From: Phycisphaerae bacterium
GTDB lineage: Bacteria > Planctomycetota > Phycisphaerae > SM23-33
Direction of reading: 5' to 3'
DNA: 41,273 nt
NCBI GenBank assembly: GCA_016931655.1
Contig: JAFGEJ010000173.1
Coordinates: forward strand, 1 to 41,273
In this document: positions 3,362-35,383 of the stretch, in pieces
How the letters are laid out: the number at the start of each line of letters is the position of its first letter
How positions within the stretch are numbered: position 1 is the stretch's first letter
Program-made: the position numbers and the translations under genes
The notes under the pieces: generated by a model
What the model saw: only the letters and a program-made list of their open reading frames with translations
Databases searched by the model: none
What the model was told of the DNA's origin: nothing

Positions 3362-6300
3362 ATGGCGTTGGATCTGGAATGGCGGGATCGGCTGAAGCGG
3401 TGGCGGGACGAATTGTCGCGCCATATCGAATACCGGCTGGGCGACGTGGACTTCGAGTTTTTCGTCACGAAGGACCGGCTTACGTATGACGAGGCGATGG
3501 CTGGCGCCTTTGCCCCCTGCCCCGCGGGCACGAAATGGGGCAGAATGTGGGAGTACGGCTGGTTCCACGCGAACATCACCCTGCCGGCGGAGGCCCGGCG
3601 CCGGCGCGTGTATCTGCGGCCTAACGTCGTCGGCGAATCGCTCGTATACATCGACGGGCAGGTGGCCGGTTCCGTCAGCAGGCAACCTATCGCAATCGCC
3701 CTAACGAGTCCAAGGCCGACAATCGACCTGACACGCAACGGCAAGAGCGGACAGAAAATCTCCGTCCTGATCGAATGCTACGCCGGGCACGGCGTACCCC
3801 GCGGCGAAACGGGGCCCGTCCCGCCGGGCCGACAAGTAGTCCAGAAACCCGAAGGAACGCAACTTGTCGTCGAACAGGGCGAATTCGGCCTGTGGGAAGA
3901 AGACGTCTACCAACTGCACGTCGACGTGGAAACCCTTTTCCAACTGCGGGAAAATATCGACAAAGAATCGTTGCGCGTCTCGGAAATCGACGAAGCCCTG
4001 CGCGAATTCACGCGGATCGTGGACTTCGAGCTGCCCCGCGAGGAATTCCTCGCCACCGTGCGCGAAGCCCGCAAAATGCTCGCGCCGCTGCTGGCGAAAA
4101 CGAACGGGCCGACGGCCCCGACGCTGTACGGCTTCGGGCACGGGCACCTGGACGTGGCGTGGCTGTGGCCGCTGGCGGAAACCGACCGCAAAGAGGCCCG
4201 CACGCTGGGCAACCAACTCGCCCTGGCGGACGAATATGAAGGCTACAACTTCCTGAACTCCCAGACACACCTGTTCTGGAGGATCCAGCAGAAGTACCCG
4301 CAATTCTGGGAACGGGTGAAGCAGGGCGTCAAGGACGGCAAGATCATCGCCGACGGCGCATGGTGGGTGGAAGCCGATACCAACATCTCCAGCGGCGAAT
4401 CGCTCATCCGCCAGGCGCTGTACGGCAAGAAATTCTTTCGCGAGGAGTTCGGCCTGGACAGTCGCGTCCTCTGGCTGCCGGACGTGTTCGGCTACTCCGG
4501 CGCCCTGCCGCAGATTCTCAATGGCTGCGGTGTGGATTACTTCGCCACCGCAAAAATCTTCTGGACGTACCACGGCGGCGATCCGTTCCCCTACAACACG
4601 TTCTGGTGGGAGGGCGTGGACGGCACGCGGATTCTCGTGCACCTGGTGAACGATTACGGCGAACCCGCCAATCCGTACGAACTGATCCGGCGGTGGAATC
4701 AGCGGGTGCAGAAAGACGGCATCACTTCTCGCCTGTTTCCGTTCGGCTTCAGCGACGGTGGCGGCGGCCCGAACCGCGACCACGTCGAATTCGCACGGCG
4801 CTGCGCGGACCTGGAGGGCTGCCCGAAACTGAAACTCTCCACGCCGCGGGAATTTTTCAACGACATCGAAGAGCAAGGCGGCATCGACAACGTCTACGTC
4901 GGCGAATTGTATTACCAGGGCCATCGCGGCACGTACACCTCCCAGGCCAAGACCAAGCAGGGCAATCGCAGGAGCGAAATCGCCCTGCGCGAGGCGGAAC
5001 TCTGGAGCACCGCCGCGGCGGTGCTGAAGAAGCACAGGATCGACAGGGAAACGCTGTGGAACTGCTGGCGGCAGGTGATGCTGCACCAGTTCCACGACAT
5101 TCTGCCCGGTTCCTCCATCGCCCGCGTGTACGAAGAAGCGGAGGCCGAATATGCCCGCGTGTTGAAGGAGTTGGCGGCAGTGACGGGCAAAGCCGCCGGC
5201 GCTCTGACCGACAACGCAAAGGACGCGATTACGCTCTTCAATTCCCTCTCCTGGGATCGCAAATCCCTGATCGCCCTGCCGGCCGGCTGGAATGGCGCGA
5301 CCGACGCCGACGGCGATACGCTGTGCGTGCAGGAGGTTGAAGGCGTGAAATATGTCGAGACGGAAATTCTGAGCATGGGCCTGGCATCGCTGAAGAAAGC
5401 GGACGCATCGGCGTCGGCGGGCTGTCGCGGCTGCGGCGGCGTGCAGGCGGAAAAAACACGGCTGGAAAACGACCTCGTTCGCGCCACGTTCAACGAACGG
5501 GGCGAACTGGTCAGTCTCGTCGCAAAGGACACCGGCATGGAGTTCCTCGCCGGACCGAGCAACCAGTTCCGCATGTACAAAGACGTGCCCAGCCAATGCG
5601 ACGCATGGGACATCGACAGCATGTACGAGCAGACGCCCGTGGAATTGCAGGCCGAGGCCAGGGTCGAAGTCGTCTGCTCCGGGCCGCTGCTGGGTAAGGT
5701 TCGCGTGACGCGGAAGATCAACGGCTCGGAGATGTCGCAGGATATCACGCTGCGACGCGGGCAGCGGCGCGTCGAATTCGCCACGGTGATCGACTGGAAC
5801 GAAAAGCACAAGCTGCTGAAAGTCGCGTTTGACTCGAACATTCACGCGAACGAGGCGATCCACGAGATTCAGTACGGTTACATCGCCCGGCCGAACCATC
5901 GCTCGCGCCCGTTCGATCGAGATCGGTTCGAGGTGTGCAATCATCGTTTCACGGCCCTGTGCGAACAGCGTCGCGGCCTGGCGGTGCTTAATGACTGCAA
6001 ATACGGCGTCAGCACGCTGGGCGGGTGCATTCAGCTCACGTTGCTCAGGAGCGCCCAGGCCCCGGACGACACCGCCGACCTGGGCCGGCAGGAATTCACC
6101 TACGCCGTGACGGCCTGGGAAGGTGCGTTCGGCGACAGCCACCTGACGCGGCAGGGATACGAACTGAACGTTCCGGTTACCGCAGTTGCAGGCTCGGCGG
6201 AGCGAACGAGCCTGTTTTCCCTCGACGCCGATAACGTCATCATCGACGCCGTCAAACCGGCGGAGGACGGCAGCGGGGACGTGATCGTTCGCCTGTACGA

Positions 6301-6472
6301 ATCGCTGCGGACCGCGACGAACTGCATGCTCTCGGCCGCCCTGCCCGTCAAGGCCGCCCGGCAGACGGACATGCTGGAGAATAAAACGGGCGATCTGACG
6401 GTATCGAAGGGAAGCATCGCCCTGTCGTTTCGCCCGTTCGAGATCAAAACCGTTCGACTGCAAACAAAATAA
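3362..6472 (+). CDS. alpha-mannosidase, glycoside hydrolase family 38
   Basis: GH38 motifs GHGHLDVAWLWP, WLPDVFGYSG, HRGTYTSQ and HQFHDILPGSSI, with C-terminal FRPFEIKT. The start is moved to ATG 3362, which follows an AAGGA RBS. Confidence 0.92.
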   Translation: MALDLEWRDRLKRWRDELSRHIEYRLGDVDFEFFVTKDRLTYDEAMAGAFAPCPAGTKWGRMWEYGWFHANITLPAEARRRRVYLRPNVVGESLVYIDGQVAGSVSRQPIAIALTSPRPTIDLTRNGKSGQKISVLIECYAGHGVPRGETGPVPPGRQVVQKPEGTQLVVEQGEFGLWEEDVYQLHVDVETLFQLRENIDKESLRVSEIDEALREFTRIVDFELPREEFLATVREARKMLAPLLAKTNGPTAPTLYGFGHGHLDVAWLWPLAETDRKEARTLGNQLALADEYEGYNFLNSQTHLFWRIQQKYPQFWERVKQGVKDGKIIADGAWWVEADTNISSGESLIRQALYGKKFFREEFGLDSRVLWLPDVFGYSGALPQILNGCGVDYFATAKIFWTYHGGDPFPYNTFWWEGVDGTRILVHLVNDYGEPANPYELIRRWNQRVQKDGITSRLFPFGFSDGGGGPNRDHVEFARRCADLEGCPKLKLSTPREFFNDIEEQGGIDNVYVGELYYQGHRGTYTSQAKTKQGNRRSEIALREAELWSTAAAVLKKHRIDRETLWNCWRQVMLHQFHDILPGSSIARVYEEAEAEYARVLKELAAVTGKAAGALTDNAKDAITLFNSLSWDRKSLIALPAGWNGATDADGDTLCVQEVEGVKYVETEILSMGLASLKKADASASAGCRGCGGVQAEKTRLENDLVRATFNERGELVSLVAKDTGMEFLAGPSNQFRMYKDVPSQCDAWDIDSMYEQTPVELQAEARVEVVCSGPLLGKVRVTRKINGSEMSQDITLRRGQRRVEFATVIDWNEKHKLLKVAFDSNIHANEAIHEIQYGYIARPNHRSRPFDRDRFEVCNHRFTALCEQRRGLAVLNDCKYGVSTLGGCIQLTLLRSAQAPDDTADLGRQEFTYAVTAWEGAFGDSHLTRQGYELNVPVTAVAGSAERTSLFSLDADNVIIDAVKPAEDGSGDVIVRLYESLRTATNCMLSAALPVKAARQTDMLENKTGDLTVSKGSIALSFRPFEIKTVRLQTK

Positions 6473-6485
6473 TCCGGCGGGAATT

Positions 6486-7307
6486 TTATCTTCTTCCATG
6501 CAGACGGCGGACGCCGGCTGCCAGGACGACCAGCAGCGAGGAAACCAGCACGATCACCGCGCCGCTGGGAAGGTCCGTGATTGCCGAAAGGAGAAATCCT
6601 CCCCCGCCGCTGATCGCACCGAGGATCACCGCCAGCAGCGTCACGCGTCGGCCGCCGCGGGTCAACTGGAAGGCCGCCGCCGCGGGATTGGTAATCAGGC
6701 TGTAGATCATCAACCCGCCGACGGCCTGGAAGTTCACGGTCATCAGCGCCGCCGTCAAGACCAGAAAGCCCGTCCAGACGCCCGTGGCGTGAATACCCGC
6801 CGCCTGGGCGTCGGCGCGGGAAAACAGAATCGCCCGCATCTCCTTGCCGAACAGCAGCACGAACGCGCCCAAGGCCGCAGCCGCCGAGAGCATCAGCCAC
6901 ACGTCCGACCAGCGGCAGTACGTCAGGCTGCCCCACAGCAGGCCGCGAACGTCGTTGTCGCTCTTGCCCAGCACGCCGAACAACCCGAAGCCCACAAACG
7001 CCAACCCCATCGTGACGGAAAACAGCAGTCCCATCACGACGTTGGCGTCCATGTGAATTTTTCGCGGATCGGCCAATCCCAGCGCAATGGCGGTGATCAT
7101 CGCCCCGCCCAGCGCCGGCAGCAGAAGAACCGCGCCGGTCAGCCCCGCCAGGGCGCCGAACACCGCGCCGGCCAAGGCCGCGTGGGCCACGCACACGCCC
7201 AGGAACGGAATCCGCATGCCGACGATGTACACGCTCAGCAGGCCGCTGGAGGCCCCGGCGATCAGTCCGCCGGCAAGGACCGGCGCCCAGAACATGAGAT
7301 CAGGCAT
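6486..7307 (-). CDS. metal ABC transporter permease (ZnuB/MntB, ABC-3 family)
   Basis: Hydrophobic multi-TM protein with VAHAALAG, LLWGSL, VGGLMIYSL and DLPSGAVIVL. ATG 7307 has a GGAGG RBS and overlaps the stop of the upstream methyltransferase. Confidence 0.88.
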   Translation of the reverse strand: MPDLMFWAPVLAGGLIAGASSGLLSVYIVGMRIPFLGVCVAHAALAGAVFGALAGLTGAVLLLPALGGAMITAIALGLADPRKIHMDANVVMGLLFSVTMGLAFVGFGLFGVLGKSDNDVRGLLWGSLTYCRWSDVWLMLSAAAALGAFVLLFGKEMRAILFSRADAQAAGIHATGVWTGFLVLTAALMTVNFQAVGGLMIYSLITNPAAAAFQLTRGGRRVTLLAVILGAISGGGGFLLSAITDLPSGAVIVLVSSLLVVLAAGVRRLHGRR

Positions 7308-7905
7308 GATCCGCCTCCCCAGCCGAAACGGCAAACTGGAGAAGGTAATTCATCTCAACGTCCCAATATCCGATCTTCCGAAACCCCGCCGCCGTTGCCA
7401 GCGATTCGACCTTCTCCGGGGACAATCGTATGTGCATCGGCGGGCCGACGGGAGAGCTTGCCTGACACTCAACAACGCCCAGCCGCCCGCCGGGTTTCAA
7501 AACGCGTCGCAACTCGCCAAACAATCCCGCCGCCTCCGCCAAAAGATTCGGCACGTGCAGCACGTTGGCGAGAAGGCACACGTCCACGGAATCGTCGGGA
7601 AGAGGAATCGCCCGTGCCAGGTCGGCGAGCATGGTTGTAACGTTCGAGAACCCCTCGGCCTTGGCCTGGCGATGTATCGCCTCAAACCAGTCCTCCTGCC
7701 GGTCCAGCGCAAAGACGTTTCCCGTCGGCCCGACGACGTTCGCCGCGAACAGTGTATATTCGCCCGTCCCACAACCGGCATCGAGAAACGTGTCCCTTTG
7801 TCGCAATTCCAGCGGATGGAAAATCCGTTCCGGCGCCTGCATCCAGAAACTGCTCGGTGCGTGATGGGCGCCGGCGTGTTCGTTTTTTGAGTCTGTGCTA
7901 CTCAT
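7300..7905 (-). CDS. class I SAM-dependent methyltransferase
   Basis: Motif I FLDAGCGTG, plus VFALD, DSVD, NVLH, RVLKPGG and GPP..IR. The N-terminus is His-rich (EHAGAHH). Both ends overlap neighbouring genes; an alternative start is at 7911. Confidence 0.85.
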   Translation of the reverse strand: MSSTDSKNEHAGAHHAPSSFWMQAPERIFHPLELRQRDTFLDAGCGTGEYTLFAANVVGPTGNVFALDRQEDWFEAIHRQAKAEGFSNVTTMLADLARAIPLPDDSVDVCLLANVLHVPNLLAEAAGLFGELRRVLKPGGRLGVVECQASSPVGPPMHIRLSPEKVESLATAAGFRKIGYWDVEMNYLLQFAVSAGEADHA

Positions 7906-8701
7906 TACCATGTCCCCCGGGCACGACGGCCCATCGGCCGGCGGTGTGCATCACGCCCAGCGTCGGCCCGTAGAGCGACTGAATTCGATCGGCGGTGAGC
8001 GTCTCGGCCGGCGGGCCGTCGGCGGTAAGTCGCCCTTCGTCCAGCACGACCACGCGCCCGCAGCAGGCCGGCAAGACCTCCAGCTCGTGGCAGACCAGAA
8101 CCACCGTGATGTGCGTCTGGCGGTAGAGTTCTTCGACAACCTCAACGATCCGCTCGCGCCAGCCAAGGTCGAGATTGGCCGTCGGCTCATCGAGCAGCAG
8201 AAGCTCGGGATTCTGGACCATCGCACGGGCGATGAGCGTCTTTCGCTGCTCGCCGCCGGAAATTTCGCCGAAACCCCGCCGCGCCAGGTCCGCCAGACCC
8301 AGCCGGTCCAGCCATTCGTCCACGATCCGCCAGTCGGCGGACTTCAGCGGGCGCAGCAGGCCCGCGATTCCGGTTCGGCCGATGGCAACAACTTCCTGCA
8401 CCGTCAGGGGCATTTCGCTTTGCGCGGGTAAAATCTGCGGTACATAACCTATTCGGCGGCGCAGGATCGTCCGTTCGCCGGCCGGCAGCGTTCCGATTTC
8501 CCGCCCGAGCACTTCCACGCGCCCGCGAACATGCCCCTGCATTCCCAGCAGGCAGCGAAGCATTGTGCTCTTGCCCGCGCCGTTGGGACCCAGCAGGCCC
8601 AGAAGCTCGCCCCGCGAAACCCCCAGCGAATCGACGGAAAGAATGTCACGATGTCCCGCGCGAACGAGTAAACCTTCGATATGGACCGCGACGTCGCTCA
8701 A
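7898..8701 (-). CDS. metal ABC transporter ATP-binding protein (ZnuC-like)
   Basis: Walker A GPNGAGKST, IGYVPQ, signature ISGGEQRK, Walker B LLLLDEP and H-loop VCHE. TTG start at 8701 has a GGAGG RBS and forms a TTGA overlap with the binding-protein stop. Confidence 0.9.
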   Translation of the reverse strand: MSDVAVHIEGLLVRAGHRDILSVDSLGVSRGELLGLLGPNGAGKSTMLRCLLGMQGHVRGRVEVLGREIGTLPAGERTILRRRIGYVPQILPAQSEMPLTVQEVVAIGRTGIAGLLRPLKSADWRIVDEWLDRLGLADLARRGFGEISGGEQRKTLIARAMVQNPELLLLDEPTANLDLGWRERIVEVVEELYRQTHITVVLVCHELEVLPACCGRVVVLDEGRLTADGPPAETLTADRIQSLYGPTLGVMHTAGRWAVVPGGHGNE

Positions 8702-9522
8702 TTCGCCTCCAGTAGTTTTTTGATATTGTCTCGCACCATATCGTCGAAAGAGGGTTGTCCCTCGTTCGTCGCGGGGAAATTGTCGAACACCGCGGCCTTC
8801 GCTTCGAGGCGCTCCGCGAGAAAGTCCGCGCACCGCCGGCCTTCGGGACGGTTGGCGACCACGAGTTTCGCCTGTTTTTCCTTCCCCGCCTGAAGGGCCT
8901 TGTCCAGCCGTTTCACGGATTCCACGTCCGTGCCGCGAAACGTCGCGACAACGTCCAGCCCCAACCACCTGCAAAACGCCTCCTGATGCACGCTGCAAAT
9001 GACAGACTCGTTCTTCAAAGGTTCCATCTCTTTTAGGCATTGCACCGAAAGTTTTTTCATTCGATCTTCAATGCGCCTCAGGCGTTCCGCCGCAATTTCT
9101 TTTTTCAGCAACCCAACACCCACCAGGGCCTCGGCGGTCTGTTTGCAGGCGGCGAGATAGCTCGCCGGTTCGCACAACCCGCCGGTGATATGGACGGGAA
9201 CGATTTTCAATCCCGCCTCAGCCGCCCCGGCGAGCTTGGCGTCCATCGACTCCTGAAAATCCATCCGCAGCAGCACGCAGCAGCGGCGAAGCTGCTGTAC
9301 CTGGGAAGGGCGGATGTCAAAGTGGCCCGGACACATGCCCGGCTCCGCCAGCCGCAGTACCGACGCGTCGCCGCCCAACAAATCCTTCGCGGCGCATTCC
9401 AGAAGCGAATTGGACGCCGCTACGTCCGCACCGCCCGGCCCAGCCGATCTCTCGCAGCCCGGTAAGGCCGCCAGGAACAGGATCGTCGGAACAACGACGC
9501 GAAATATCATGGGCTTTTGCAT
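8698..9522 (-). CDS. metal ABC transporter substrate-binding lipoprotein (ZnuA/TroA-like)
   Basis: Lipobox [18 protein letters not shown] sits at the position of the ZnuA-family PH motif, and SVHQEAF is present. It is adjacent to the ATPase and permease. An alternative start at 9510 gives an ATGA overlap. Confidence 0.8.
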
Positions 9523-10199
9523 TGAATACCACCGGTGGTCATGAACCGCACCAGAACACCGGTATCCCCCGGATGGGTATACCAGGTCGCGGCGCTCAAA
9601 GGCGCTTGTTTACTTTCGGATTTTTCGCTGTCAAACACAGGCCCCATGCTCCAGAGAATCCATTGAAGCGGTTGATGCGAGGCGAATGCGGCGTCTCCGG
9701 AATACTTTCCCGTCGTCGATTGACATACGGGGAAATCATCGGGAATCCATATATACCGATAATCTCTGTCGTATCTTGGTTCGCCGTTATCCAGGTACGG
9801 GCGGCCTGTCCTGGCGTATTTGTACGTGAATCCGGGATGAAACGCATCTTCCACTTCGGCGGCAAGCCCCCCGTCGGGCGGCCCTTTGGGAACATATCCC
9901 TCATTGGCGAGCTCCACGGGAAGCTGGCACCAATGATCCAGCAGATCGGTGTTGCAGTTGATGCGTACCGGCGGATATACGCCGTCATGGTCCGGGGCGT
10001 ACATCTCCAGCGCCAGTCCCAGTCCGTAGAGTTCCGCGTGGACCTTCGCGGCGCGAGCCATTTCCTTGGCCCTGGAAACCATCGGAAGCAGAATCGACAC
10101 CAGCAGCGCGATGATTGAGATCACCACAAGCAACTCAATCAATGTAAACGCGCCGCTGGATCGACCTGTCACTATGTTCGACGCCGTTTTGAGAGGCAT
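9507..10199 (-). CDS. prepilin-type N-terminal cleavage/methylation domain protein (pseudopilin-like)
   Basis: GA|[22 protein letters not shown] followed by SRAKEMAR. The variable C-terminal domain has [10 protein letters not shown] and WILWSMGP. An alternative GTG start is at 10172. Confidence 0.88.
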
Positions 10200-11176
10200 G
10201 ACCCAATGATTCCGACGAGCAGAATGGACACGGTAGCCGGTTCCGGTACAACGTCCATAATAAATATTTCGTAGCCGAATCGGCCATCGTTGCCCTTTCC
10301 GGATTCCTGATTGATGATTCCGTACACCTCAAACTCACCGTCCGGAGCGTCGCCCAGGTCGTAAAGCGGCATGCGAAGATTGAATAGGCGGCCCTGACCA
10401 TCGGTAACTTCGCAAAGGCGTTCGTCCCACGCCGTTTGCCCCCACCCTCCATCACCGTTTTCCGTCAGCGTCAAACCCGTAACGTGCACGTACATTCCCT
10501 GGTAATACTCCGCTCCGGTTTTACGCGACGGGTCGAACTTCGGATAGTTCGAATCATATCCAGCCGCGAGGGGATCGGCGTACAAATCGGCAAGGGTCAA
10601 TTCCTTCGCCGTGGGCAGACCGCATTGGGCCTCGACCAACGTAACCGTGAAGTCGTATTGGGGATCCGTATCGTGGTCCTCGTTGATGTTTCTCTTTCCG
10701 CCGTAAAACTTACTGATGTTGGCCGTCACCGTCACCAGATCGCCCTGACGAAACTGCTGAAGATCGTTGTTGATATCGTAATAGTAATTCAGGCGAAGCA
10801 TTTCCGCGGCCCAGGCGTTCCCGTCGTAGGTTCCGTAGCCCCATGGGAGGCTGCTGTAATTCTGACCCATCCACAAGGCCGTTCCGTTGTGATCCTCATT
10901 TTCCCCCTCACCGATCCCCTGGATGAAAATCTGCCATTGGGCGCCCATTCTTCCTTCGGCGTATGCAGCGTCGTCATACGTCGAATCCAGCATATCCTCG
11001 GGATTGTTCAGAATCACGCCGGTGATGGTGATCGGATAGGTTCCTGTCCATGTGGAAACGCCCATGGCATTGACGGCCTGGAAATCCCAGTTCGACACAT
11101 CGGCAGCTTGCACCTGTGATGCGATACCACAAAACAATCCCACCAATACAAACATAGAAATACGAGCGAACTTCAT
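10172..11176 (-). CDS. PEP-CTERM sorting domain surface protein
   Basis: Signal peptide [24 protein letters not shown]; C-terminal [25 protein letters not shown]. The acidic, beta-rich body has OB-fold-like segments ([19 protein letters not shown]). A GAGGAG RBS precedes ATG 11176. Confidence 0.9.
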
Positions 11177-11259
11177 GATGATTCTCCTCTCTATGAGCAA
11201 AATACAACGGGTAAAACGAGCATTCCTTTCGCGTCATAAACCGCGGCGGAGCGACCTTG

Positions 11260-11286
11260 GTATTACGACGCAAAGAATCGTAATAC
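11260..11286. promoter_or_regulatory. putative NikR-type operator, GTATTAC-N13-GTAATAC
   Basis: Perfect 9-bp arms GTATTACGA / TCGTAATAC. It fits the TRWYA-N15-TRWYA NikR operator geometry, lies upstream of a metal ABC operon and overlaps the -10 element. Confidence 0.65.
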
Positions 11287-11305
11287 GACGATCCGGGTTT
11301 TGCAA
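11277..11305 (-). promoter_or_regulatory. sigma70-type promoter of the PEP-CTERM/metal ABC operon
   Basis: TTGCAA (11305-11300), a 17-nt spacer and TACGAT (11282-11277) on the minus strand, about 100 bp upstream of ATG 11176. Confidence 0.6.
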
Positions 11306-11493
11306 GCCAAAATTTCGAAATTCATCAAAATTATTTTGCCGGTATTTCCCTGTAATACCCCCCGCCCGGCTGCGTTTGGCCTTGTGGCGTTCGGATGGTG
11401 GACTCCGCGCGTTTGTTTGAGAACAATCAGACTTGAAGCGACGCCGCATCGGCGGTAGGATTTTTGATTCCTTTTCGGACCAGGAGCAGACTC

Positions 11494-12615
11494 ATGGCGG
11501 AAGTGATTCTCGAAAACGTGGATAAGGTATATCCCGGCGGCGTACAGGCCGTGACGGATTTCAACCTGAACATCCAGGACGGCGAATTTCTCGTGCTGGT
11601 CGGTCCTTCGGGCTGCGGCAAGAGCACGACCCTTCGGATGGTCGCGGGGCTGGAGGAAATCTCCGGCGGCACGATTCGCATCGGCCGGCGCATCATCAAC
11701 GACGTGGCGCCGAAGGATCGTGACGTCGCGATGGTCTTTCAGAACTACGCCCTGTATCCGCACATGACGGTATACAAAAACATGGCCTTCGCGCTGAAAC
11801 TTCGCAAATACCCCAGAAGGGAAATCGACCAGCGCGTCCGCGAGGCGGCGAGCATTCTGGACATCGAAGAGTTGCTGGAGCGTAAGCCCAAGGCCCTGTC
11901 CGGCGGGCAGCGGCAGCGCGTCGCCGTCGGCCGGGCAATCGTGCGCCAACCCAAGGCCTTCCTGTTCGACGAGCCCCTCTCCAACCTCGACGCCAAGCTG
12001 CGCGTGGAAATGCGCGCGGAACTGAAGCGCCTGCACCACAAACTCTCCACCACGACGATCTACGTTACCCACGACCAGGAAGAGGCCATGACCCTCGGCG
12101 ACCGCGTGGTGGTGATGAAGTTCGGCGTTATGCAGCAGGTCGGCACGCCGCTGGAGGTGTACAACCGCCCGCTCAACAAGTTCGTCGCGGGGTTCGTCGG
12201 CACGCCGCCAATGAACTTCCTTGACGGAACCGTGACGTCCGACGGAGGAGACCTCTTTTTCGACGGAACGGATTTTCGGCTTCGTCTGCCGAAGCAACAC
12301 GCCTCCGCCCTGGCCTCGCACGTGTCCCGGCCGGTGATCCTGGGCGTCCGCCCGCAGGCGATGAACACCAACCCCGAAGGCCGATTCGCCGGGAAGGACA
12401 ATTCGATCCCCGTGACGGTGCAGGTGGTCGAACCGCTGGGCGAGAAAATGGACGTCTTCGCCGCCACGCCGACGTTCCCGCATATCGTCGCCCGCGTGGA
12501 CGCGCGAACGGACATAACCACCGAGGCTAAACTCAACCTGTACCTGGACATGAACCGCGTGCATGTTTTCGACACCGACGGCGATCAGGTGAACCTGACT
12601 CTCGCGTCCGCGTAA
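11494..12615 (+). CDS. carbohydrate ABC transporter ATP-binding protein (MalK/UgpC/MsmX family)
   Basis: [44 protein letters not shown] and [12 protein letters not shown], with a C-terminal TOBE region. An AGGAG RBS precedes ATG 11494. Confidence 0.93.
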
Positions 12616-23312: not shown

Positions 23313-24407
23313 CATTCGGATAACGTGAAATTCTCGCCGATGCGCCCCGCGGGTGCACAGGATCAACTGGTGTGTGTTATGGACGCACTCCCTCGGCAGC
23401 CAGGCGCCTCGCACCAGAAGGGCCGAATTTTCAGAATCCGCGAACAGGCGGAGTTCCCCGTCGGTGGCGGCGACAAATCGCGTCGCGTCATACCAGCATC
23501 CGGCGCGGGCGCCGGGCTTGAGCTCCACGCGCATCCCGTCGCCTCGCAGGCTCAATAGCACGATGCGATCCTGCAGCACGTCGTAATAGGCGAAGCGTTG
23601 ATCGTCGGGGCTGAGCGCCCGCCCCAGGCCCGCGAAACTCTGAAACCGTCCCATCGGGGTATCCGGTATGGCGGCATCGACGAGGGCTTCGGGAGGAAAG
23701 GCGCCCGGCTTCCAGTGGGCTACCTGGGATTGACTTTCACTCTGGCGGAGAAAAACGATTCGCCCGTCGGCGGTCCACGTCGGCCAGGCGTGCTGCTCGT
23801 TCGGCGAGTTCGTGGGGCAGGGCGTGAGCTTGCGGTCCGCCAGGGAAAGCACGAACAACTGGAAATGGCCGGGCGTTTGCCCCAGGGCCACGAACGCAAT
23901 CGCCTCGCCCGACGGCGAGAAGGCGGGCGTCATGATTCCCCGCAGGGCGACGTTCAGCCGTTCGGTTTTTCCGGAAGCCGTGTCATACAGGCTCAGCGAG
24001 CAGTTTTCCTCGCCTGCGTGGACGACATACGCCAGCCGGGCGCCGTCAGACGACCAGGCCGGCCAAATTGCGCCGGAGGGGCACACTACGCGGGTCTGGC
24101 TGCCTTCGGCCAATTCCCGCAGGTGCAGGCTCATGCCTGAAAGGTTTTCGCCCGTCCAGAGCGACTCCAGCGTCGGCGGCGTCTCGCCGCGATAGTCCAG
24201 GCAGGCGATCCATCGTCCGTCGGGCGAGACGGCCGGTAAGAGCAGGCCGTTGTTGGACGCCTCTCCCAATCCCTGCATCTGCACCCGCACGTGCGTGACG
24301 GCTGCGGGACCCCACGCGCCGTCCACCTTCGAGATTTGTTTCTGTCGCGGTGGAATACACCCCGCCAGGATCACCATCGCCCACGTTACGTAAAAAGTCC
24401 GTTTCAC
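23292..24407 (-). CDS. TolB-like (PD40 repeat) beta-propeller lipoprotein
   Basis: Lipobox ILAG-C. PD40 repeats PAVSPDGRWIA, PAWSSDGARLAY, PAFSPSGEAIAF, PTWTADGRIVF and ALSPDDQRFAY. The GTG start overlaps the gspD stop. Confidence 0.82.
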   Translation of the reverse strand: MKRTFYVTWAMVILAGCIPPRQKQISKVDGAWGPAAVTHVRVQMQGLGEASNNGLLLPAVSPDGRWIACLDYRGETPPTLESLWTGENLSGMSLHLRELAEGSQTRVVCPSGAIWPAWSSDGARLAYVVHAGEENCSLSLYDTASGKTERLNVALRGIMTPAFSPSGEAIAFVALGQTPGHFQLFVLSLADRKLTPCPTNSPNEQHAWPTWTADGRIVFLRQSESQSQVAHWKPGAFPPEALVDAAIPDTPMGRFQSFAGLGRALSPDDQRFAYYDVLQDRIVLLSLRGDGMRVELKPGARAGCWYDATRFVAATDGELRLFADSENSALLVRGAWLPRECVHNTHQLILCTRGAHRREFHVIRMQVDAVQ

Positions 24408-27400
24408 AGGGCGCCTCCCGCGGAGACCTGCACGAACGGTTCAGGCGTCCAGGCGGTCGGTTCGGGCGTTCGTTTCACCGGCGCCGGTGCGGAATCGGAC
24501 GACTCGGAATCCTTCTTCGAAGGGGGCGCGGGCGGACCGACGAATTCATGCTTCCGGGGCTGGGGCGTAGCGGCGTCCTGAACCGGCGCCGCCTCGGGGG
24601 CCTTGCGATCATCCAGTCCGTCCGGCGCGATACTGGACAAGGGCGGTTCGGGCAATTCCGGCAGTGCGGGCGGTTCCTGTACTTCCGGCAAAAACACTTC
24701 TTCAACCCGCTGGAGCACCTCGTTGGGCTGTTTCATCTGCTCCTTCAACTGCTCCGGCGTGTTGACCACCTGCGGCGTGACAAACATGATCATCTCACGG
24801 TTCTGCTTTTGCTTGTCGACGTGGCGGAAGAATTTTCCGATCCCGGGCAAGTCGCCCAGGAGCGGCCACTTGCGAACGTCGTCATAGTCCACCTGCTGAA
24901 TGATGCCGCTGATCATGATCGTCTGGCCGCTTTTGAGCACGACGTGCGTGGTTACCTCGCGGCGGTCGAAGACGGGGTTGTCGAAATACGTCTGGCCGGG
25001 CACGATGCGCGAGACCTCCAGGTTGATCTGAAGATCCACGCTGCCCTCCTTGGTGATGTGCGGGCGAATGCGAAGGCGCGTGCCCACTTCCTCGTAGACG
25101 ATGTTCGTCACGGTGGACGTGCCCTCGGCCGAGGTGCGTCCCTCGGCCAGCACCGGCACGTCCTGCCCGTCGAAGTATTCGGAGGCCTGGTTGTCCGATG
25201 TGGTGAGCGTCGGCGCCAGCAGGACCTTCATGTCGAATTCGCGGATCAGCAGATTCAGCAGGGCGTTGACGCTGGCCTGCGTCTCCAGGGTAAGCACGCC
25301 GCCGAAGACCCTGGCGTAGGTGTCGGAGAAGTCGGACTGGGCGGCGCCTCCGATGGCGGTGTCTCGCTGGGTCAGCAGGGCCGGGTCGGCGGCGATCCGA
25401 AGACCCAGCGTCGTCTGGCCGTCGTGTTGAATCTCGCCGACGCGGGCCTTGATCATGACCTGCCGGCTGAGCTGGTCCAGTTCCTCGATCAGGTTGTGAA
25501 TCGGCTTCTTGTACGCCTCCGGCGAGAGAACCATCAGCGCATTGCGCTGGTAGACCGGAACAATGCGGATTTTACCGATCAGGTTGCTGCTGGGCACAAC
25601 GTCGGCGGGCCGACGATAGTTCTGCCACCAGAAAGGCATCTCTTCGGGAGCGCTCTGCTGGTTGGCCTGGTTGTTGGAATTCTCCGACGATTGGTTTTGA
25701 TTGTTTTCGTTCCGCGGAAGACTGGATCGGCGGTTGCTCGTCAGGCCGCGCTCGGCCCGGCGGATTTTCGCCAGCGTGCCGGGTTCGGAGAGAATCGCGT
25801 TGAGCTGCTCGCACAAGTCTTCCGCGTTGGCGTATTTCAGCTCGATAATCGACGGCAGGCCCGCTTCCGGCGGCCTGTCCAATTCGGCGATCAGTTTGTC
25901 GATGACCTGGTAGTTCCCGGCGCTCTTGGAATTGACAATCAGCCGGCCCGAACTGGGCAACACCTGGAAGGTGAACTGTCCCAACAATCGGCCGACGGGC
26001 TTGATCTCCTTTTCCTGCGACTGAGGCCACCACCACGGAAGGTTGCTTTTACTTTCCCTGGCTGTGAACATGGCGCTCAGAAGATCTCGCATCTCCCCGG
26101 GATCCACGTATTTCAACGTGTATACCTTCGGCTTGACGACGTTGGGATCAATGGGCTTGTCTTCCTTTTTCAGCAGGTCCCGGACTTTCTCCATCGTTTT
26201 GGCGTCGGTAATGACGGTGATGGAGTTACGACGTTTATCCGCCACCACGGAGACTTTTACCGCCGAGGGATCCCGCCGGTAACTGGTGCCCCACGAGGCC
26301 TTGTAGTCAACGTCCATGTTCGAGAAGAGCAATTCGATCCGGTCGGCCATCTCCTCGGCGTCGGCGTGTTGCAGGGAGAAGGTTTCCATAATGCGATGGT
26401 CGGCGCCTTCCACGTCGAGTTTTTCCAGCAGTTCCTTCACGAGCCGTCGGCCTCGCGGCGCGCCGAAAACGATGATCTTGTTCGCCTGGGCGAAAGGCAC
26501 GACGTAGGTCGTCTCGCGGAGTTCAGCACTGGGCATGGACTGGAGCGTGTGCTGGATTCGCTCGGATACCCGATCCACGTCCGCGAATTCCACGTCGAGC
26601 AGTTCGTAGTCCTTTTTCACTTCGCGCGGCTTGTCCAGTTCGCGGACCCACGCCTCGATCTGCGGCATCATTTCCGCCGGCGCGGTGGCGATGATCCAGT
26701 TGCGCGAGATGTGAGGCCAAAGGGTAATGGGCGTTTTGCTGGGCTCAATTTCCGTCACGCCGGCTTCGGCCTGATCGGATTTACCCGCCGGCTGGGGGCC
26801 GCCTGGGGAAGGCATATTCGGCGGCATCATGCCGGGAGGCATCTGCCTCGGACTCGGGCCGGACGGTTTGCCGGCCTGCTCGCCCCGCGCGGTGGTGATG
26901 TCCTTCGCGGGCAGGCCCATTCGTCCGGCGATCAGCCAGCGCAGAATGGCGATAATCTCCGAGGCGTCCTGGTGTTTGACCTCGATGATCTTCGTCGCCG
27001 TCTGATCCGCCATCGGAACATCCATGCTTTGGATGATCTGTTCGAGACGTTCCAGGTTCGCCACGGTGTCGGTGATGGCGATGGTGCGGGTGTCCGGATC
27101 GGCCAGGATGTACCCGTAACTGGCGAGCATGGGCTTGAGGGCGGCGACCATGTTCTTGACGCTGTAGTGCCGGATGCGGAATTCCTTCACGACCACCAGC
27201 AGCTTGTCCTTGACGGTGGAAACCGGCTGATCCGCCGGAATTCGCCGCAGGGGCATGCGCAGAATATCGCTGACGGGGCGAATCCGAATCAGCGTATCGC
27301 CCTCTTCCACCACGGCGTCCTGGGTGAGCATCGCCTGGCGGATCAGAAACAGCGCCTCATTCAGCGGCAGGGGTTTCTTGTTGATGATGGTGATCTTCTT

Positions 27401-27628
27401 TCCCTTGACCTCGTCGGCCACCAGAACGGGCTTGCCGAGTTTTTCGGACAGGAACGAGCCGACCTGCTCCAGGGACATGTCCTTGATCGCCACGGAGATC
27501 GGTTCCGGCGTGGCGGGCTGTGTTTCGCTCGTCGCGGGCGCCTCGGCGGGCGGGGGCGTCTGTCCCCCCGCCGAAACGGCCAGTACCGTCAGCCACAACG
27601 TGCACGTCCATACGGCTTGTGTTTTCAT
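24404..27628 (-). CDS. gspD: type II secretion system secretin GspD
   Basis: Signal peptide, repeated secretin N-domains (DTRTIAITD, RRNSITV, LIAELDRP) and a secretin core (QVMIKARVGE, GTRLRIRPHI, GQTIMISGII, KWPLLGDLPGIGKFF, MFVTPQVV). The tail is Pro-rich. Confidence 0.92.
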   Translation of the reverse strand: MKTQAVWTCTLWLTVLAVSAGGQTPPPAEAPATSETQPATPEPISVAIKDMSLEQVGSFLSEKLGKPVLVADEVKGKKITIINKKPLPLNEALFLIRQAMLTQDAVVEEGDTLIRIRPVSDILRMPLRRIPADQPVSTVKDKLLVVVKEFRIRHYSVKNMVAALKPMLASYGYILADPDTRTIAITDTVANLERLEQIIQSMDVPMADQTATKIIEVKHQDASEIIAILRWLIAGRMGLPAKDITTARGEQAGKPSGPSPRQMPPGMMPPNMPSPGGPQPAGKSDQAEAGVTEIEPSKTPITLWPHISRNWIIATAPAEMMPQIEAWVRELDKPREVKKDYELLDVEFADVDRVSERIQHTLQSMPSAELRETTYVVPFAQANKIIVFGAPRGRRLVKELLEKLDVEGADHRIMETFSLQHADAEEMADRIELLFSNMDVDYKASWGTSYRRDPSAVKVSVVADKRRNSITVITDAKTMEKVRDLLKKEDKPIDPNVVKPKVYTLKYVDPGEMRDLLSAMFTARESKSNLPWWWPQSQEKEIKPVGRLLGQFTFQVLPSSGRLIVNSKSAGNYQVIDKLIAELDRPPEAGLPSIIELKYANAEDLCEQLNAILSEPGTLAKIRRAERGLTSNRRSSLPRNENNQNQSSENSNNQANQQSAPEEMPFWWQNYRRPADVVPSSNLIGKIRIVPVYQRNALMVLSPEAYKKPIHNLIEELDQLSRQVMIKARVGEIQHDGQTTLGLRIAADPALLTQRDTAIGGAAQSDFSDTYARVFGGVLTLETQASVNALLNLLIREFDMKVLLAPTLTTSDNQASEYFDGQDVPVLAEGRTSAEGTSTVTNIVYEEVGTRLRIRPHITKEGSVDLQINLEVSRIVPGQTYFDNPVFDRREVTTHVVLKSGQTIMISGIIQQVDYDDVRKWPLLGDLPGIGKFFRHVDKQKQNREMIMFVTPQVVNTPEQLKEQMKQPNEVLQRVEEVFLPEVQEPPALPELPEPPLSSIAPDGLDDRKAPEAAPVQDAATPQPRKHEFVGPPAPPSKKDSESSDSAPAPVKRTPEPTAWTPEPFVQVSAGGAL

Positions 27629-27638
27629 CGTCGTGTCC

Positions 27639-28244
27639 TCAATTCAGCGCCTTGGTGAGCTGCTCGCGAATGTTCGGCGGCATGTTCTGCATCGCTTTTT
27701 CACGAACCTCAGGCGGTAATGTCTTAAAATGTTCAATCATCTGCGGCGTCAGTGTAAATTCGGGCGGCGGGCCGGAAGGCCTTGCTCCCGGCGGGCCGGC
27801 CATGCCTCTCGGCGACGGGCCGGGCGAGCCCGGACCGCCCGCGAAGACCTGGACTTTTTGTGTTTTCCCCTGAACGTCCAGCTCGACCCAATCCGGGCCG
27901 ATCTTCGTGATCTTCGCGCCGTTGTAGTCGTCCCCGACCTTCAAAGCCGAGCCGTTCTCAAAAAACGCCCACTCGCCCAGCACGCCCACCAGCTTGGCGG
28001 AGAAGGGCTTCTTCGGGCCGGTGAAGAGATTCCTTTCGCTCAGGAATTTCTCCCGCGAATCGCCTTTCTTCGCTGAGTCCGGCGTGGCGGAAGAATTCTG
28101 TTGAAACCGGTCCAACAGCTTCCGGGCCTCGCCTACCGGTTCGTTTCCGCGCAGCAACGACGCGAGGCAGAGGATCGTCATCCATCCCGCCAGGACCAGC
28201 AAGGCTCGCAAGGCCGTTCGAATTGTGCGTTCGTTTCGCGTCAT
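27639..28244 (-). CDS. GspC-like type II secretion protein
   Basis: N-terminal TM helix, RNLF, an HR-like domain (LVGVLG...LKVGD...KITKIGPDWVEL) and a Pro-rich tail. ATG 28244 forms an ATGA overlap with the upstream gene, and the gene sits just before gspD. Confidence 0.65.
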   Translation of the reverse strand: MTRNERTIRTALRALLVLAGWMTILCLASLLRGNEPVGEARKLLDRFQQNSSATPDSAKKGDSREKFLSERNLFTGPKKPFSAKLVGVLGEWAFFENGSALKVGDDYNGAKITKIGPDWVELDVQGKTQKVQVFAGGPGSPGPSPRGMAGPPGARPSGPPPEFTLTPQMIEHFKTLPPEVREKAMQNMPPNIREQLTKALN

Positions 28245-28828
28245 GGGGTGTCGGGCTTCTTCGTTTCCGCCAGCGTCGCCAGTACCAGGGTCACGTCCAG
28301 TTGGCCGGGCTGCTTTTCGTTGTTGGAGATATTCATGCTCTGCACAATCATCAGGCTCTTGGCCTGGGACATCCGGCTGAGGCACTTGGCCAGTTGGGGC
28401 AACTGGCACTGCCCTCGCACCTGCAACGTCACCAGGCTGACGTTGGGAATTTCCCGCAACGGCCTGGCCCGCTGGGGTTGATAATCCGTCAGGCGGACTC
28501 CGCCGCCCTGGAAGGTGTCCTGCGCGGACTGGAGAAGGTCCATTCGCGCCGTCTGCACGTCGGACAGCGGCTGGCGGATCGCCGGCCCGTATACCCGCGA
28601 CAGCCGTTCCCGCTGGCCCAGCACGCGACGCAGCGAACGATTCAGTTTTGTCAACTCCTCGCCGTATGCCTCGCTCCGATCGCGGGCGGAGGACCAACTG
28701 TCCACGAACGGAATCACGGTCAGGCGGAGCAGGACAATCGCGCCCAGGGCCGCGGCGCCCAGGAACAGGGCGCGTCGATCTCGCGCGGAAAGGTTTATAT
28801 TTTTAATACTTTTAATATTCATATTCAT
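28241..28828 (-). CDS. GspM/PilO-like type II secretion protein
   Basis: LSARDRRAL followed by a TM helix, a coiled coil and a ferredoxin-like C-terminal domain (LQVRGQCQLPQLAKCL...LDVTLVL). Operon position fits. Confidence 0.7.
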   Translation of the reverse strand: MNMNIKSIKNINLSARDRRALFLGAAALGAIVLLRLTVIPFVDSWSSARDRSEAYGEELTKLNRSLRRVLGQRERLSRVYGPAIRQPLSDVQTARMDLLQSAQDTFQGGGVRLTDYQPQRARPLREIPNVSLVTLQVRGQCQLPQLAKCLSRMSQAKSLMIVQSMNISNNEKQPGQLDVTLVLATLAETKKPDTP

Positions 28829-30435
28829 GCCCCACCTCCCGTCGGCCGGCTGGCGGGCTGAGACTCCGGTGAAACCGCCGGCTGCGTCGTCGGCGCCGTA
28901 GCCGGTGGGGGCGTAGTGCTTGGCTGGCTCGCGGGTCGGGTTGATGCGCCGGCGCCGGCGAATTGCCGGAAGACCAGATCGATTTCAAACCGGAATTTGT
29001 CGTTGTCAGGCCGGGCGCGGCGGAGTTCCACCTGCCCCAGTTCCGTAAGTTTCTGGAGAAAGTCCTGACATTCCTTTTCGTTGGCCAGCGTGCCCTGGAG
29101 AGTGACCTGCCCGCTTCGCGCATAACTCATCGAAGTGACGATGATCGATTCGCTCGCCGCCCGCGTGATCCGTTCGAGCACGTCCAGAGGCGCGGGCGCA
29201 CCGGTTTCCAGAAACGCTCCGACCGCCGACTGGCGAACCAGGCCGCCCTGGTGATACGTGTCGCGGTACACGGCGTGCACCATTTCTTCCCGCCGCGACG
29301 CCTCGTGCAGATCCAGGGCGTACAGCGTTGCCACGCTCGCCAGCAGCCAGGCGACCGCCCCGGCCCAATGCCGGCGGTTCTGCTTCAAGCCGGCGGGCTT
29401 CTCCTCTTTTGCGCGGGCCAGGCGAATCATGGAGGCCGGGTCCCGCATCTCGCCCAGGGCGGCCCCAACGAGAGTCCCGATCGTATCGAACGAAAGTCCT
29501 TCCTCCAAGCGCAGCGTCGCGGGCGCCGGAGCAACGTCGGCTGGGATGTTCAGCGCCTTGGATACCCGCGCCGCGACGCCCGCAGAGCGACTCGCCCTGC
29601 CGAAGAGCACACATCGCTTCGGACGTGCCTTCGGGGGCATTTCGGCGAGGCAGTCGTGATACGCCTCCGGCAAGCCGCCGGCCCAGGCGAGAATCGCCTC
29701 TTCCAGAGCCTTCGCCGCAGCCGGGTCGTTCCGCTCCGCAGCCTGGAGTTTCCGGCGCTCCGCCTCTTGGCAGGATACACCCAGCGATTTGGCGATGTGC
29801 TCCGTCCAGGCGTCGCCGCCGGCGTCGGCTACCGCGCATCGCCATATCCGCCCGTCGCATATCGTCGCCAGGGCGGTGCTGCGCGCGCCGACGTCCATCA
29901 GCAGGACCGGCTCGGCCGCGTCGAACCATTCCGTCCATGCGTTCGCCAGCGCCGGCAGGGACGGCGTGACGTCCGCTCCGCCCTTTCGCCATCGCTCACA
30001 AACGCCCGAAATCGCCGCCAGCGCGTCGCGTCGCGTCGCGCAGAGCAGCACGCGCTGCAAATCCGTTTCACGCGGATCGGACAGCGTTTTCCAGGCGGCG
30101 GTGAATTTTTCCGCCTGTGTCGGCAGGAGCATTTCCAGTTGACTGCGAACCATTTTTTCCAGCGTCGCGTCGTCGGCCTGGGGAAGCCGAATCGTGCGAT
30201 AAAGCACCAGGTCGTTTCCCAGGCACGCCGCCAGGGGAGCGGAGACGTCCTCCGCGGGCAGTTGCCCCGCCGCGGAGGCCAGGTCCGGGGCAGCCGTCCA
30301 TCGCGCCGGCAAGGGCGCCTCGGCGTATCGATCCGCGCGAAAGCCATCCGCCGTTCGCGTCAGACGAATCCGCCGAACGGCGGAACCGCCGAACTCCAAC
30401 GCCCAGGCAACAGTATGGGTGTTCGTTTCGTTCAT
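28825..30435 (-). CDS. GspL-like protein (PilM-like actin fold + TM + PilN-like domain)
   Basis: WALEFGGSAVR, LLMDVGARST, GGDAWTEHIAKSLGVS..EAERRK, a TM segment and PilN-like VTLQGT. ATG 30435 overlaps the gspK stop. Confidence 0.75.
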   Translation of the reverse strand: MNETNTHTVAWALEFGGSAVRRIRLTRTADGFRADRYAEAPLPARWTAAPDLASAAGQLPAEDVSAPLAACLGNDLVLYRTIRLPQADDATLEKMVRSQLEMLLPTQAEKFTAAWKTLSDPRETDLQRVLLCATRRDALAAISGVCERWRKGGADVTPSLPALANAWTEWFDAAEPVLLMDVGARSTALATICDGRIWRCAVADAGGDAWTEHIAKSLGVSCQEAERRKLQAAERNDPAAAKALEEAILAWAGGLPEAYHDCLAEMPPKARPKRCVLFGRASRSAGVAARVSKALNIPADVAPAPATLRLEEGLSFDTIGTLVGAALGEMRDPASMIRLARAKEEKPAGLKQNRRHWAGAVAWLLASVATLYALDLHEASRREEMVHAVYRDTYHQGGLVRQSAVGAFLETGAPAPLDVLERITRAASESIIVTSMSYARSGQVTLQGTLANEKECQDFLQKLTELGQVELRRARPDNDKFRFEIDLVFRQFAGAGASTRPASQPSTTPPPATAPTTQPAVSPESQPASRPTGGGA

Positions 30436-33983: not shown

Positions 33984-34000
33984 GGCGTCCCTTTCGTTAT

Positions 34001-35242: not shown

Positions 35243-35250
35243 AGATTTCT

Positions 35251-35371: not shown

Positions 35372-35383
35372 CAATTTTCTTTA

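Follow-up and report, generated by a model that had tools for sequence, protein, structure and literature searches.

A contig of 41,273 bp from a Phycisphaerae bacterium (Planctomycetota; assembly GCA_016931655.1, contig JAFGEJ010000173.1, analyzed over its entire length and denoted the window below) contains a six-gene operon that encodes an acidic surface protein with two predicted oligonucleotide/oligosaccharide-binding (OB) folds, a pilin-like protein, an importer of the ABC-3 family and a methyltransferase, and is preceded by an operator of the NikR type. We consider it probable that this locus is a NikR-repressible nickel-acquisition operon. Comparative sequence data firmly establish the OB protein and the pilin-like protein as a pair that belongs to the predicted NikR regulon across phyla, and we infer that the pair acts in nickel capture in the cell envelope. 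The window is contig C258 of the source genome (G000; 2.82 Mb in 289 contigs, ~90% complete); gene identities were assigned with Pfam and NCBIfam, which agree with each other.

The operon and its NikR-type operator

All six co-directional open reading frames (ORFs; 6486-11176, minus strand) are present at the positions given in the preliminary description of this DNA, and the overlap that it claimed for every gene junction is confirmed by the ORF table and the junction sequences. In the ORF table, the first two junctions overlap over 10172-10199 and 9507-9522, respectively; the genes for the binding protein and the ATPase share TTGA at 8698-8701, with TTG rather than ATG as the start codon of the ATPase gene; the methyltransferase gene begins with the ATG at 7911 or 7905, the TAG stop codon of the ATPase gene occupying 7898-7900; and the last overlap is ATGCCTGA at 7300-7307, with the ATG at 7307 as the probable start of the permease gene. 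The true start of the OB gene is the ATG at 11176, which is preceded by AGAGGAGA. These junctions show six genes that, judging from their sequence, are translationally coupled and placed behind the NikR-type operator, and the binding protein, ATPase and permease of the ABC-3 importer (genes 3, 4 and 6) are all encoded within this one operon (Table 1).

The palindrome GTATTAC-N13-GTAATAC (11260-11286), which had been described as perfect, is indeed so and occupies the stretch 84-110 nt ahead of the first ATG. For delta-proteobacteria, the predicted NikR signal is GTGTTAC-[N13/14]-GTAACAC, which resembles its enterobacterial counterpart in being an inverted repeat of 27-28 bp, and the site of D. 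desulfuricans hydAB is given as GTaTTAC-N13-GTAACAC (Rodionov et al. 2004, PMC545781). The box in the window shares the arm architecture, spacing and length of the predicted signal, the half-sites GTATTAC and GTAATAC being more AT-rich. The source genome encodes a single NikR (contig C190; NikR_C, 105 bits; NCBIfam NF003381, 150 bits against a cut-off of 105). Since the operator is of the NikR type, the earlier call of nickel appears correct; it is supported by the box architecture, the genomic NikR and the conservation of boxes among related loci.

The sequence GTATTAC-N13-GTAATAC matches once in the 2.82-Mb genome, at the operon itself, so that a wider regulon could not be built for this bacterium; looser scoring gave one further 12/12 N13 match (C124:10576), within an ORF, and at a threshold of at least 11/12 the whole genome (2.8 Mb) has 10 N13 and 9 N14 matches. 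A second, smaller palindrome (Table 1) is possibly an auxiliary site: it includes a further GTATTAC half-site, the third in this region, which precedes the main box by 72 nt. A sigma-70 scan of positions 6000-11800, which does not model the promoters of this lineage, returned no promoter-like site and thus gave no confirmation of the -10 element that the preliminary description places in the palindrome. The Rfam search of the window at gathering thresholds yielded no family and, in particular, no cobalamin or other riboswitch; thus, a riboswitch explanation does not apply.

To assess conservation of the operator, 94 related loci (1.35 Mb) were surveyed for GTRNTAC-Nx-GTANYAC with at least 11 of the 12 specified bases matched. 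Spacers of 13 and 14 nt accounted for 18 and 55 sites, respectively, and those of 12, 15 and 16 nt for 1, 2 and 2; the 21 sites with a spacer of 11 nt result from tandem extra half-sites. Among the 73 N13 and N14 sites, 68 fall between -700 and +60 relative to the start of the OB gene (68.8 kb in total) and five in the remaining 1.28 Mb, that is, NikR-type boxes are enriched approximately 250-fold immediately upstream of the OB gene, whereas the control spacers (12, 15 and 16 nt) produced one site inside this zone and four outside. At least one box was found in 55 of the 94 loci, and where nikR precedes the pair, the box is positioned upstream of nikR. The locus of a Limisphaera isolate (L102) has a degenerate box only.

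In many verrucomicrobial loci, the divergent region between the pair and a nikM or NiCoT gene contains two sites that overlap. Three or four successive GTAAYAC half-sites, with start-to-start spacings of 21 and 18 nt, were observed between nikM and the OB gene in loci L089, L096, L105, L109, L115 and L145 (~8870-8945); the sequence of these arrays suggests two overlapping NikR sites.

Table 1. Features of the window, with positions counted from its first base
Feature	Positions	Strand	Models and remarks
Gene 1, tandem-OB-fold PEP-CTERM protein, 334 aa	10172-11176	minus	TIGR02595
Gene 2, type IV pilin/pseudopilin-like protein, 230 aa	9507-10199	minus	N_methyl PF07963, TIGR02532
Gene 3, ZnuA-family substrate-binding lipoprotein	8698-9522	minus	PF01297
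Gene 4, ABC ATPase	7898-8701	minus	PF00005 ABC_tran
Gene 5, class-I S-adenosylmethionine methyltransferase	7300-7911	minus	Methyltransf_31/25/11
Gene 6, ABC-3 family permease	6486-7334	minus	PF00950
NikR-type operator, GTATTAC-N13-GTAATAC	11260-11286		27 bp, 7-nt arms; read directly and detected by an inverted-repeat search
Second small palindrome, GGTATTAC-N3-GAAATACC	11340-11359		contains the third GTATTAC half-site
MalK-like sugar ABC ATPase	11464-12615	plus	ABC_tran, OB_MalK, TOBE
ORF of 1166 aa	13759-17259	minus	C-terminal PF00648
Type II secretion secretin GspD	24404-27628	minus	four Secretin_N repeats
PilM-like gene	28825-30450	minus	
GspK	30432-31883	minus	
GspF	34139-35242	minus	
GspE	35384-37144	minus	MshEN domain

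The nickel operon and the gene for the MalK-like ATPase are transcribed away from each other, and the NikR box lies in the 287 bp that separate them; the product of the long ORF beyond the ATPase gene ends in a calpain-family cysteine protease domain. The nikR gene of the source genome (C190; L001 1471-1887) is detached from the operon, which it divergently adjoins in many relatives, and is convergent with a gene for a DUF89 damage-control phosphatase (L001 599-1462).

The OB/pilin pair and its genomic neighborhoods

Searching 40 related genomes (41 with the source genome) with the pilin-like protein, we identified full-length homologs with 37-44% identity at 14 loci in 13 genomes, and the OB gene directly adjoins the pilin gene at all 14. 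At 10 of these loci, two of which are cut by contig ends, the genes for ZnuA, the ATPase and the permease come next; at three, no transporter is adjacent. In locus L024 (4878-8009), the pair is followed by a Peripla_BP_2/FecCD/ATPase system of the siderophore, haem or B12 type that replaces the ABC-3 importer.

A profile of the OB family recovered 184 loci in species-representative genomes, and the best 80 of the 184 were analyzed as wider loci by local tblastn with the window proteins, the NikR of the source genome and queries from sister loci. These 80 loci span Phycisphaerae, other Planctomycetota, Kiritimatiellia, Lentisphaerota, Verrucomicrobiia/Limisphaerales and Opitutia; 50 of them extend for at least 5 kb on each side and were counted separately (Table 2). 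The identities of CbiM with PDGLE, CbiQ, NicO, FmdE, Peripla_BP_2 and FecCD were verified with Pfam on example loci.

Table 2. Genes within 6 kb of the OB gene in the wider loci
Neighbor	All loci	Full-flank loci
Pilin gene adjoining the OB gene	78/80	50/50
ABC-3 importer	35/80	22/50
CbiM/CbiQ/ATPase, an energy-coupling factor (ECF) system of the NikMQO type	13/80	13/50
NiCoT (NicO)	2/80	2/50
No transporter	30/80	13/50
nikR	45/80	28/50
Conserved methyltransferase	39/80	25/50
Secreted FmdE-domain protein	23/80	19/50

Several layouts recur among the 94 loci: a methyltransferase gene on one side of a divider and OB-pilin-ZnuA-ATPase-permease on the other (15 loci, and five more with nikR added), nikR-OB-pilin alone (10 loci), NikO-NikQ-NikM on one side of a divider and OB-pilin-FmdE-nikR on the other (8 loci), and nikR-OB-pilin-ZnuABC-methyltransferase (5 loci). 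From these layouts, the part that stays constant is the OB/pilin pair, which is usually accompanied by nikR. Throughout the Planctomycetes-Verrucomicrobia-Chlamydiae (PVC) superphylum, homologs of the PEP-CTERM and pilin genes are found in linkage with one another and with metal transporter genes, so that the refuting condition named in the preliminary description, a lack of linkage to metal ABC genes elsewhere, does not hold. The six-gene order given there is not the conserved unit, the transporter being the part that varies. Collectively, these comparisons of gene order show that the OB/pilin pair is the conserved core of the putative NikR-linked loci across the PVC superphylum and that the inner-membrane transporter is interchangeable. 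Because the pair is also encoded next to ECF, NiCoT or FecCD-type transporters, or next to nikR only, a specific hand-off to the ZnuA lipoprotein, as previously proposed, is unlikely to be the essence of the system.

The secreted FmdE-domain protein (PF02663) is encoded between the pilin and nikR in loci of the ECF and NiCoT types (L089-L098, L105, L107, L109, L115, L118, L122 and L145; for example, L097 10857-11435) and never in those of the ABC-3 type; it may be a periplasmic metal-binding partner. The contigs of L107, L111 and L122 are labelled Candidatus Acidoferrum, Terriglobia and Bifidobacteriaceae, respectively; their gene content is like that of the verrucomicrobial loci, so that mis-binning is likely.

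The link to nikR extends to whole genomes. Among the 41 genomes searched, nikR is present in all 14 that carry the pair, compared to 17 of the 27 others. Of 301 genomes sampled evenly across the phylum, 10 contain the OB family and 103 contain NikR_C; nikR is found in 10 of the 10 OB-positive genomes and in 93 of the other 291, counts in which related genomes are not independent, and in seven of the nine OB-positive genomes other than the source genome, nikR is located within 4 kb of the OB gene. The source genome also carries a [NiFe] hydrogenase large subunit, the gene for which is split over two contig ends (fragments at C34:9602-9835 and C277:6081-6752, at or near the ends, apparently an assembly split). 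In this ~90% complete genome, we found no CbiM, NicO or HupE/UreJ and no match to PF00593, the TonB-dependent receptor family, and the permease of the window is the only ABC-3 permease detected (tblastn, E<=1e-5).

Predicted properties of the encoded proteins

The OB protein contains an N-terminal signal peptide and, at the C terminus, a PEP motif (VPEP) followed by a hydrophobic helix and a basic tail (RRRT); it scores 19.9 bits with the PEP-CTERM model TIGR02595 (cut-off, 16), and no Pfam domain was detected in it at E<=0.01. The exosortase, prepilin peptidase and nikR, for which the preliminary description recommended a search of the genome, are all present, the exosortase on contig C2 (PF09721, 189 bits). 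The AlphaFold2 (AF2) model of the OB protein (predicted local distance difference test score, pLDDT, 87; predicted template modeling score, 0.83) consists of two predicted OB domains, at ~25-185 and 190-315, with VIA Z of 8-10 to the OB domains of MCM, RPA and Asn/Asp-tRNA synthetases as well as to YgiW and CcmE; Foldseek matches are weak, and the neighbors in the ESM Atlas are DUF5689 modules of secreted nucleases (template modeling score, 0.53-0.59).

The OB family comprises 462 representatives (50% clustering) at E<=1e-3 and 353 at E<=1e-10, with D95, Q105, N163, H168, D215, R218, E223, Q226, Q290 and E291 as the invariant polar residues. The C-terminal module differs by lineage (see also L031 8480-9553). 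Proteins from Phycisphaerae and Planctomycetota have PEP-CTERM, those from Verrucomicrobiota and Kiritimatiellia carry a domain of ~70 aa with RLRxx at its end, and a few of the family have a dockerin-like tail. Such variation fits a protein that is anchored at the cell surface, as far as its sequence tells.

The mature OB protein has a predicted isoelectric point (pI) of 4.05, with 44 acidic and 15 basic residues, a composition that fits cation binding and not nucleic-acid binding. This composition bears on the idea that the OB protein and the pilin-like protein form a pilus that binds DNA or another polyanion, in the manner of the competence pilus with ComEA, as the resemblance of the tandem OB folds to those of RPA, MCM and tRNA synthetases and to DUF5689, combined with a pilin-like partner, might suggest. 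Given the strong acidity of the mature protein and the linkage of the pair to nikR and nickel transporters instead of competence or nuclease genes, we regard such a pilus as highly improbable.

The pilin-like protein possesses a class III prepilin leader, with Gly-1, a hydrophobic residue at +1, Glu+5 and a hydrophobic helix, and exceeds the cut-offs of PF07963 (25 versus 21.2) and TIGR02532 (21.8 versus 16.3). Its AF2 model (pLDDT 83) predicts a helix at 20-70 followed by beta-strands; Foldseek matches of this model to FimA, PAK pilin and EpsG are weak (E>=0.04). Identity as GspG was rejected, the TIGR01710 score being 36.6 bits against a cut-off of 88.85, with a match to the N terminus alone. 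Within the subfamily, C82, N83, H89 and W90 are invariant and C91 is present in at least 90% of the members; these residues belong to the conserved loop PPVRxNCNxDLxxHWCQxPVEL, which is the sole low-confidence stretch of the AF2 model. Prediction of a complex between residues 25-310 of the OB protein and 42-230 of the pilin-like protein returned a score of 0.00, which amounts to no verdict and speaks neither for nor against binding.

The prepilin peptidase of the source genome belongs to the Peptidase_A24 family, and the genome also encodes two secretins and gives 17 N-terminal prepilin-type matches. A cluster resembling a type II secretion system lies on the minus strand of the window (24404-37144), 13-26 kb from the nickel operon (Table 1); judging by its genes, this system could assemble the pilin-like protein.

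The substrate-binding lipoprotein matches PF01297 with 50 bits and has the lipobox LPGC. Among ten orthologs, C64, P65, G66, H67, H179, C184, N224 and N248 are invariant; the motif CPGH takes the place of the DPH of zinc- and manganese-binding proteins. Profile alignments with SitA and with ZnuA of Synechocystis, though weak, put Asn residues close to where Glu/His and Asp usually serve as ligands. The search of the Protein Data Bank (PDB) with the single sequence produced no match, and the profile search only weak ones. The orthologs of the ATPase are 48-80% identical from residue 1; the models nearest to it are those for corrinoid, haem and F420-0 ABC ATPases, all of which score below cut-off. 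The permease matches PF00950 with 126 bits.

The ZnuA and ABC-3 Pfam matches, along with the abundance of prepilin-type genes in PVC genomes, to which the 17 matches in the source genome attest, might be taken to indicate that this is an ordinary zinc or manganese importer of the ZnuABC type located by chance beside a PEP-CTERM gene and a prepilin gene, with an accidental palindrome upstream. The comparative data already contradict this explanation, considering that the pair and the box are conserved and nikR is adjacent; furthermore, the canonical zinc and manganese ligands do not appear to be conserved in the weak alignments, and the NCBIfam models for zinc and manganese systems remain far below their cut-offs (AztC, 25 versus 350; ZnuB, 55 versus 284). 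We therefore consider it extremely improbable.

The methyltransferase encoded within the operon, which the preliminary description counted among the components of the system, appears to be an insertion in this genome only among the loci compared: no other locus examined has a methyltransferase gene between the ATPase and permease genes. A different class-I methyltransferase is encoded no more than 7 kb from 43 of the 45 loci of the ABC-3 type, versus 8 of the 49 others; the position of its gene varies, as it may be divergent, separate the OB gene from the pilin gene or follow that of the permease. These conserved methyltransferases form a single family with 28-63% mutual identity, with which the in-operon enzyme scores 25-40 bits. 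The ortholog in the source genome (C247:3907-4500) is 63% identical to that of L108; it is detached from the operon, which its counterparts divergently adjoin in many relatives, and no box was seen upstream of it in the scan of the genome. No NCBIfam model is matched at cut-off by the in-operon methyltransferase, and no curated model names either enzyme.

The preference of the conserved methyltransferase for ABC-3-type loci raises the prospect that the substrate is not free Ni(II) but cobalt or an organic metal complex, such as a nickelophore or a corrinoid-like compound, with the methyltransferase acting on the ligand. The Asn residues near the usual carboxylate ligand positions, the affinity of the ATPase to corrinoid, haem and F420-0 ATPases (below the cut-offs) and the Peripla_BP_2/FecCD system of L024 point in the same direction. 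We nevertheless consider such a substrate improbable because the boxes are of the NikR type and linked to nikR, Ni2+/Co2+ transport is the classic function of the partner systems NikMQO and NiCoT, the window lacks a cobalamin or other riboswitch, and no genes for chelator synthesis were seen in the loci inspected.

Proposed nickel capture: model, alternatives and relation to known systems

According to the reading that we favor, a NikR-repressible nickel-acquisition operon, the acidic tandem-OB protein would leave the cytoplasm through Sec and be anchored on the cell surface by the exosortase, or by a different C-terminal module in other lineages, and would concentrate or bind nickel there. 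The pilin-like protein would be processed by the prepilin peptidase and could then either join a short type II secretion pseudopilus and conduct cargo through the outer layers or stay in the inner membrane as a periplasmic nickel-binding partner, by means of the Cys-x6-His-Trp-Cys loop. The ABC-3 system would import Ni(II) or a small nickel chelate across the inner membrane, and under nickel-replete conditions, Ni-NikR would bind the box and shut off the operon. The proposed capture and transfer draw on the export signals, the charge, the conserved Cys and His residues, the predicted co-transcription with importers and the available machinery.

Several observations weigh against this interpretation. 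At the strict threshold, 39 of the 94 loci lack a box, and the reference consensus for NikR (PMC545781) was itself predicted computationally. No transporter is encoded nearby in a substantial number of loci (Table 2), and 7 of the 50 full-flank loci lack both nikR and a transporter. The OB protein contains only three His and two Cys residues, and structurally it comes closest to OB domains that bind nucleic acids and to the DUF5689 of secreted nucleases. The assignment of ligands in the binding protein rests on weak profile alignments (E of 3e-4 to 3e-3). A search of sequencing runs revealed no RNA data set that contains the locus, and two metatranscriptomes from the same study contain next to none of the sampled sequence words. 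Finally, TonB-dependent receptors are encoded in 7 of the 14 genomes that carry the pair and in 11 of the 27 that do not, so that there is no anticorrelation; because the receptors coexist with the pair in half of its carriers, the pair is unlikely to be a simple replacement for them, as the preliminary description had envisaged.

Alternatively, the operon and the pair might be regulated by NikR, with the pair serving a purpose other than uptake, be it buffering or sequestering nickel outside the cell, adhesion or type II export of a nickel-related factor. The 10 loci with nikR-OB-pilin alone, the 13 full-flank loci without a nearby transporter and the co-occurrence of the pair with TonB-dependent receptors are compatible with such a role, and NikR regulons include non-transport genes, such as that for the Fe-only hydrogenase of D. 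desulfuricans, according to the earlier analysis (PMC545781). Against this, the pair leads an ABC-3 importer operon in 45 of the 94 loci, with overlapping genes in the window, and the divergent region that bears the box is shared with NikMQO-type genes (13 loci) or NiCoT (2 loci); co-repression with importers is the expectation for accessories of uptake. On balance, a role outside uptake seems unlikely to us, albeit less so than the other alternatives discussed above.

Within the uptake reading, we put forward tentatively, as a possibility that falls short of being probable, that the OB protein and its pilin partner constitute a previously unknown, TonB-independent route for nickel through the outer envelope of PVC bacteria, which would use pseudopilus/type II secretion machinery and feed interchangeable inner-membrane importers.

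The locus resembles the NikR regulons with NikABCDE, NikMNQO/NikKMLQO and NiCoT (PMC545781) in the 27-28-bp inverted repeat with GTxxTAC arms and N13/14 spacers upstream of uptake genes, in the presence of nikR in the genome, often adjacent, and in the NikMQO and NiCoT partners in sister loci. Unlike in those regulons, the inner-membrane importer is of the ABC-3 family, which is not among the nickel transporters named in that paper, and nothing there corresponds to the OB-fold and pilin-like genes at the head of the operon. With the cluster A-I importers (ZnuABC, MntABC/SitABC, TroABC and AztABC), the operon shares a ZnuA lipoprotein, an ABC-3 permease and an ATPase encoded together; it differs from them in the CPGH motif in place of DPH, in the Asn residues that weak alignments place near the ligand positions and in control of the NikR type rather than the Zur or MntR type. 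In Helicobacter, NikR controls FrpB4 and FecA3, two outer-membrane receptors for nickel that depend on TonB. The pair would likewise be an envelope component that NikR regulates together with nickel importers, but it shows no homology to these receptors and no beta-barrel.

An ABC-3-type importer combined with a surface protein anchored through a sorting signal is also found in the anchored-repeat ABC cassette of actinobacteria (TIGR03770/03771). The models of that cassette remain below cut-off (ATPase, 166.6 versus 268.8; permease, 51.2 versus 296.8); in contrast to its LPXTG/sortase anchor, the anchor here is PEP-CTERM/exosortase, the surface proteins are unrelated, and the cassette has no pilin. 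The pilin-like protein has in common with type II pseudopilins and type IV pilins the class III leader, Glu+5 and the machinery genes in the genome, and its predicted model has a long N-terminal helix with a beta-sheet, and the combination of a pilin with a small ligand-binding periplasmic or surface protein is reminiscent of the logic of the competence pilus and ComEA. It differs in that its gene lies inside a metal operon, away from the machine genes, and in the Cys/His loop, which we did not observe among the matched pilins; the partner protein, unlike that of the competence pilus, is acidic. Finally, the OB protein is similar to the DUF5689 (PF18942) modules of secreted nucleases with respect to the predicted tandem-OB fold, the presumed extracellular location and the lineage-specific C-terminal sorting domains, and differs from them in the lack of a Pfam sequence match and of a nuclease domain and in its acidic surface.

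In the literature searched, which did not extend to subscription journals and supplementary files, there is no prior description of an OB/pilin module in nickel uptake. We rate as new the combination of an accessory OB/pilin pair and an atypical ABC-3 importer in a putative NikR-controlled nickel uptake locus. To our knowledge, the passage of nickel across the outer layers of bacteria is understood for very few lineages. Sediments, soils and guts are rich in PVC bacteria, which use [NiFe] hydrogenases.

Three independent lines, namely the operator, gene adjacency and co-occurrence, tie this two-gene module to NikR, and it is accompanied here by an ABC-3 importer that is a candidate for nickel specificity and whose predicted Cys/His/Asn site is unusual. 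Annotation can also benefit, as genes currently named "hypothetical", "PEP-CTERM protein" or "type II secretion system protein" can now be marked as putative members of the NikR regulon, and a concrete function is offered for one family among the hugely expanded prepilin-type proteins of Planctomycetota and Verrucomicrobiota. If the proposed role is true, nickel would be the first physiological cargo for one of the many orphan proteins of this type in the two phyla, and the accompanying ABC-3 system would represent a new, nickel-specific branch of the ZnuABC family.

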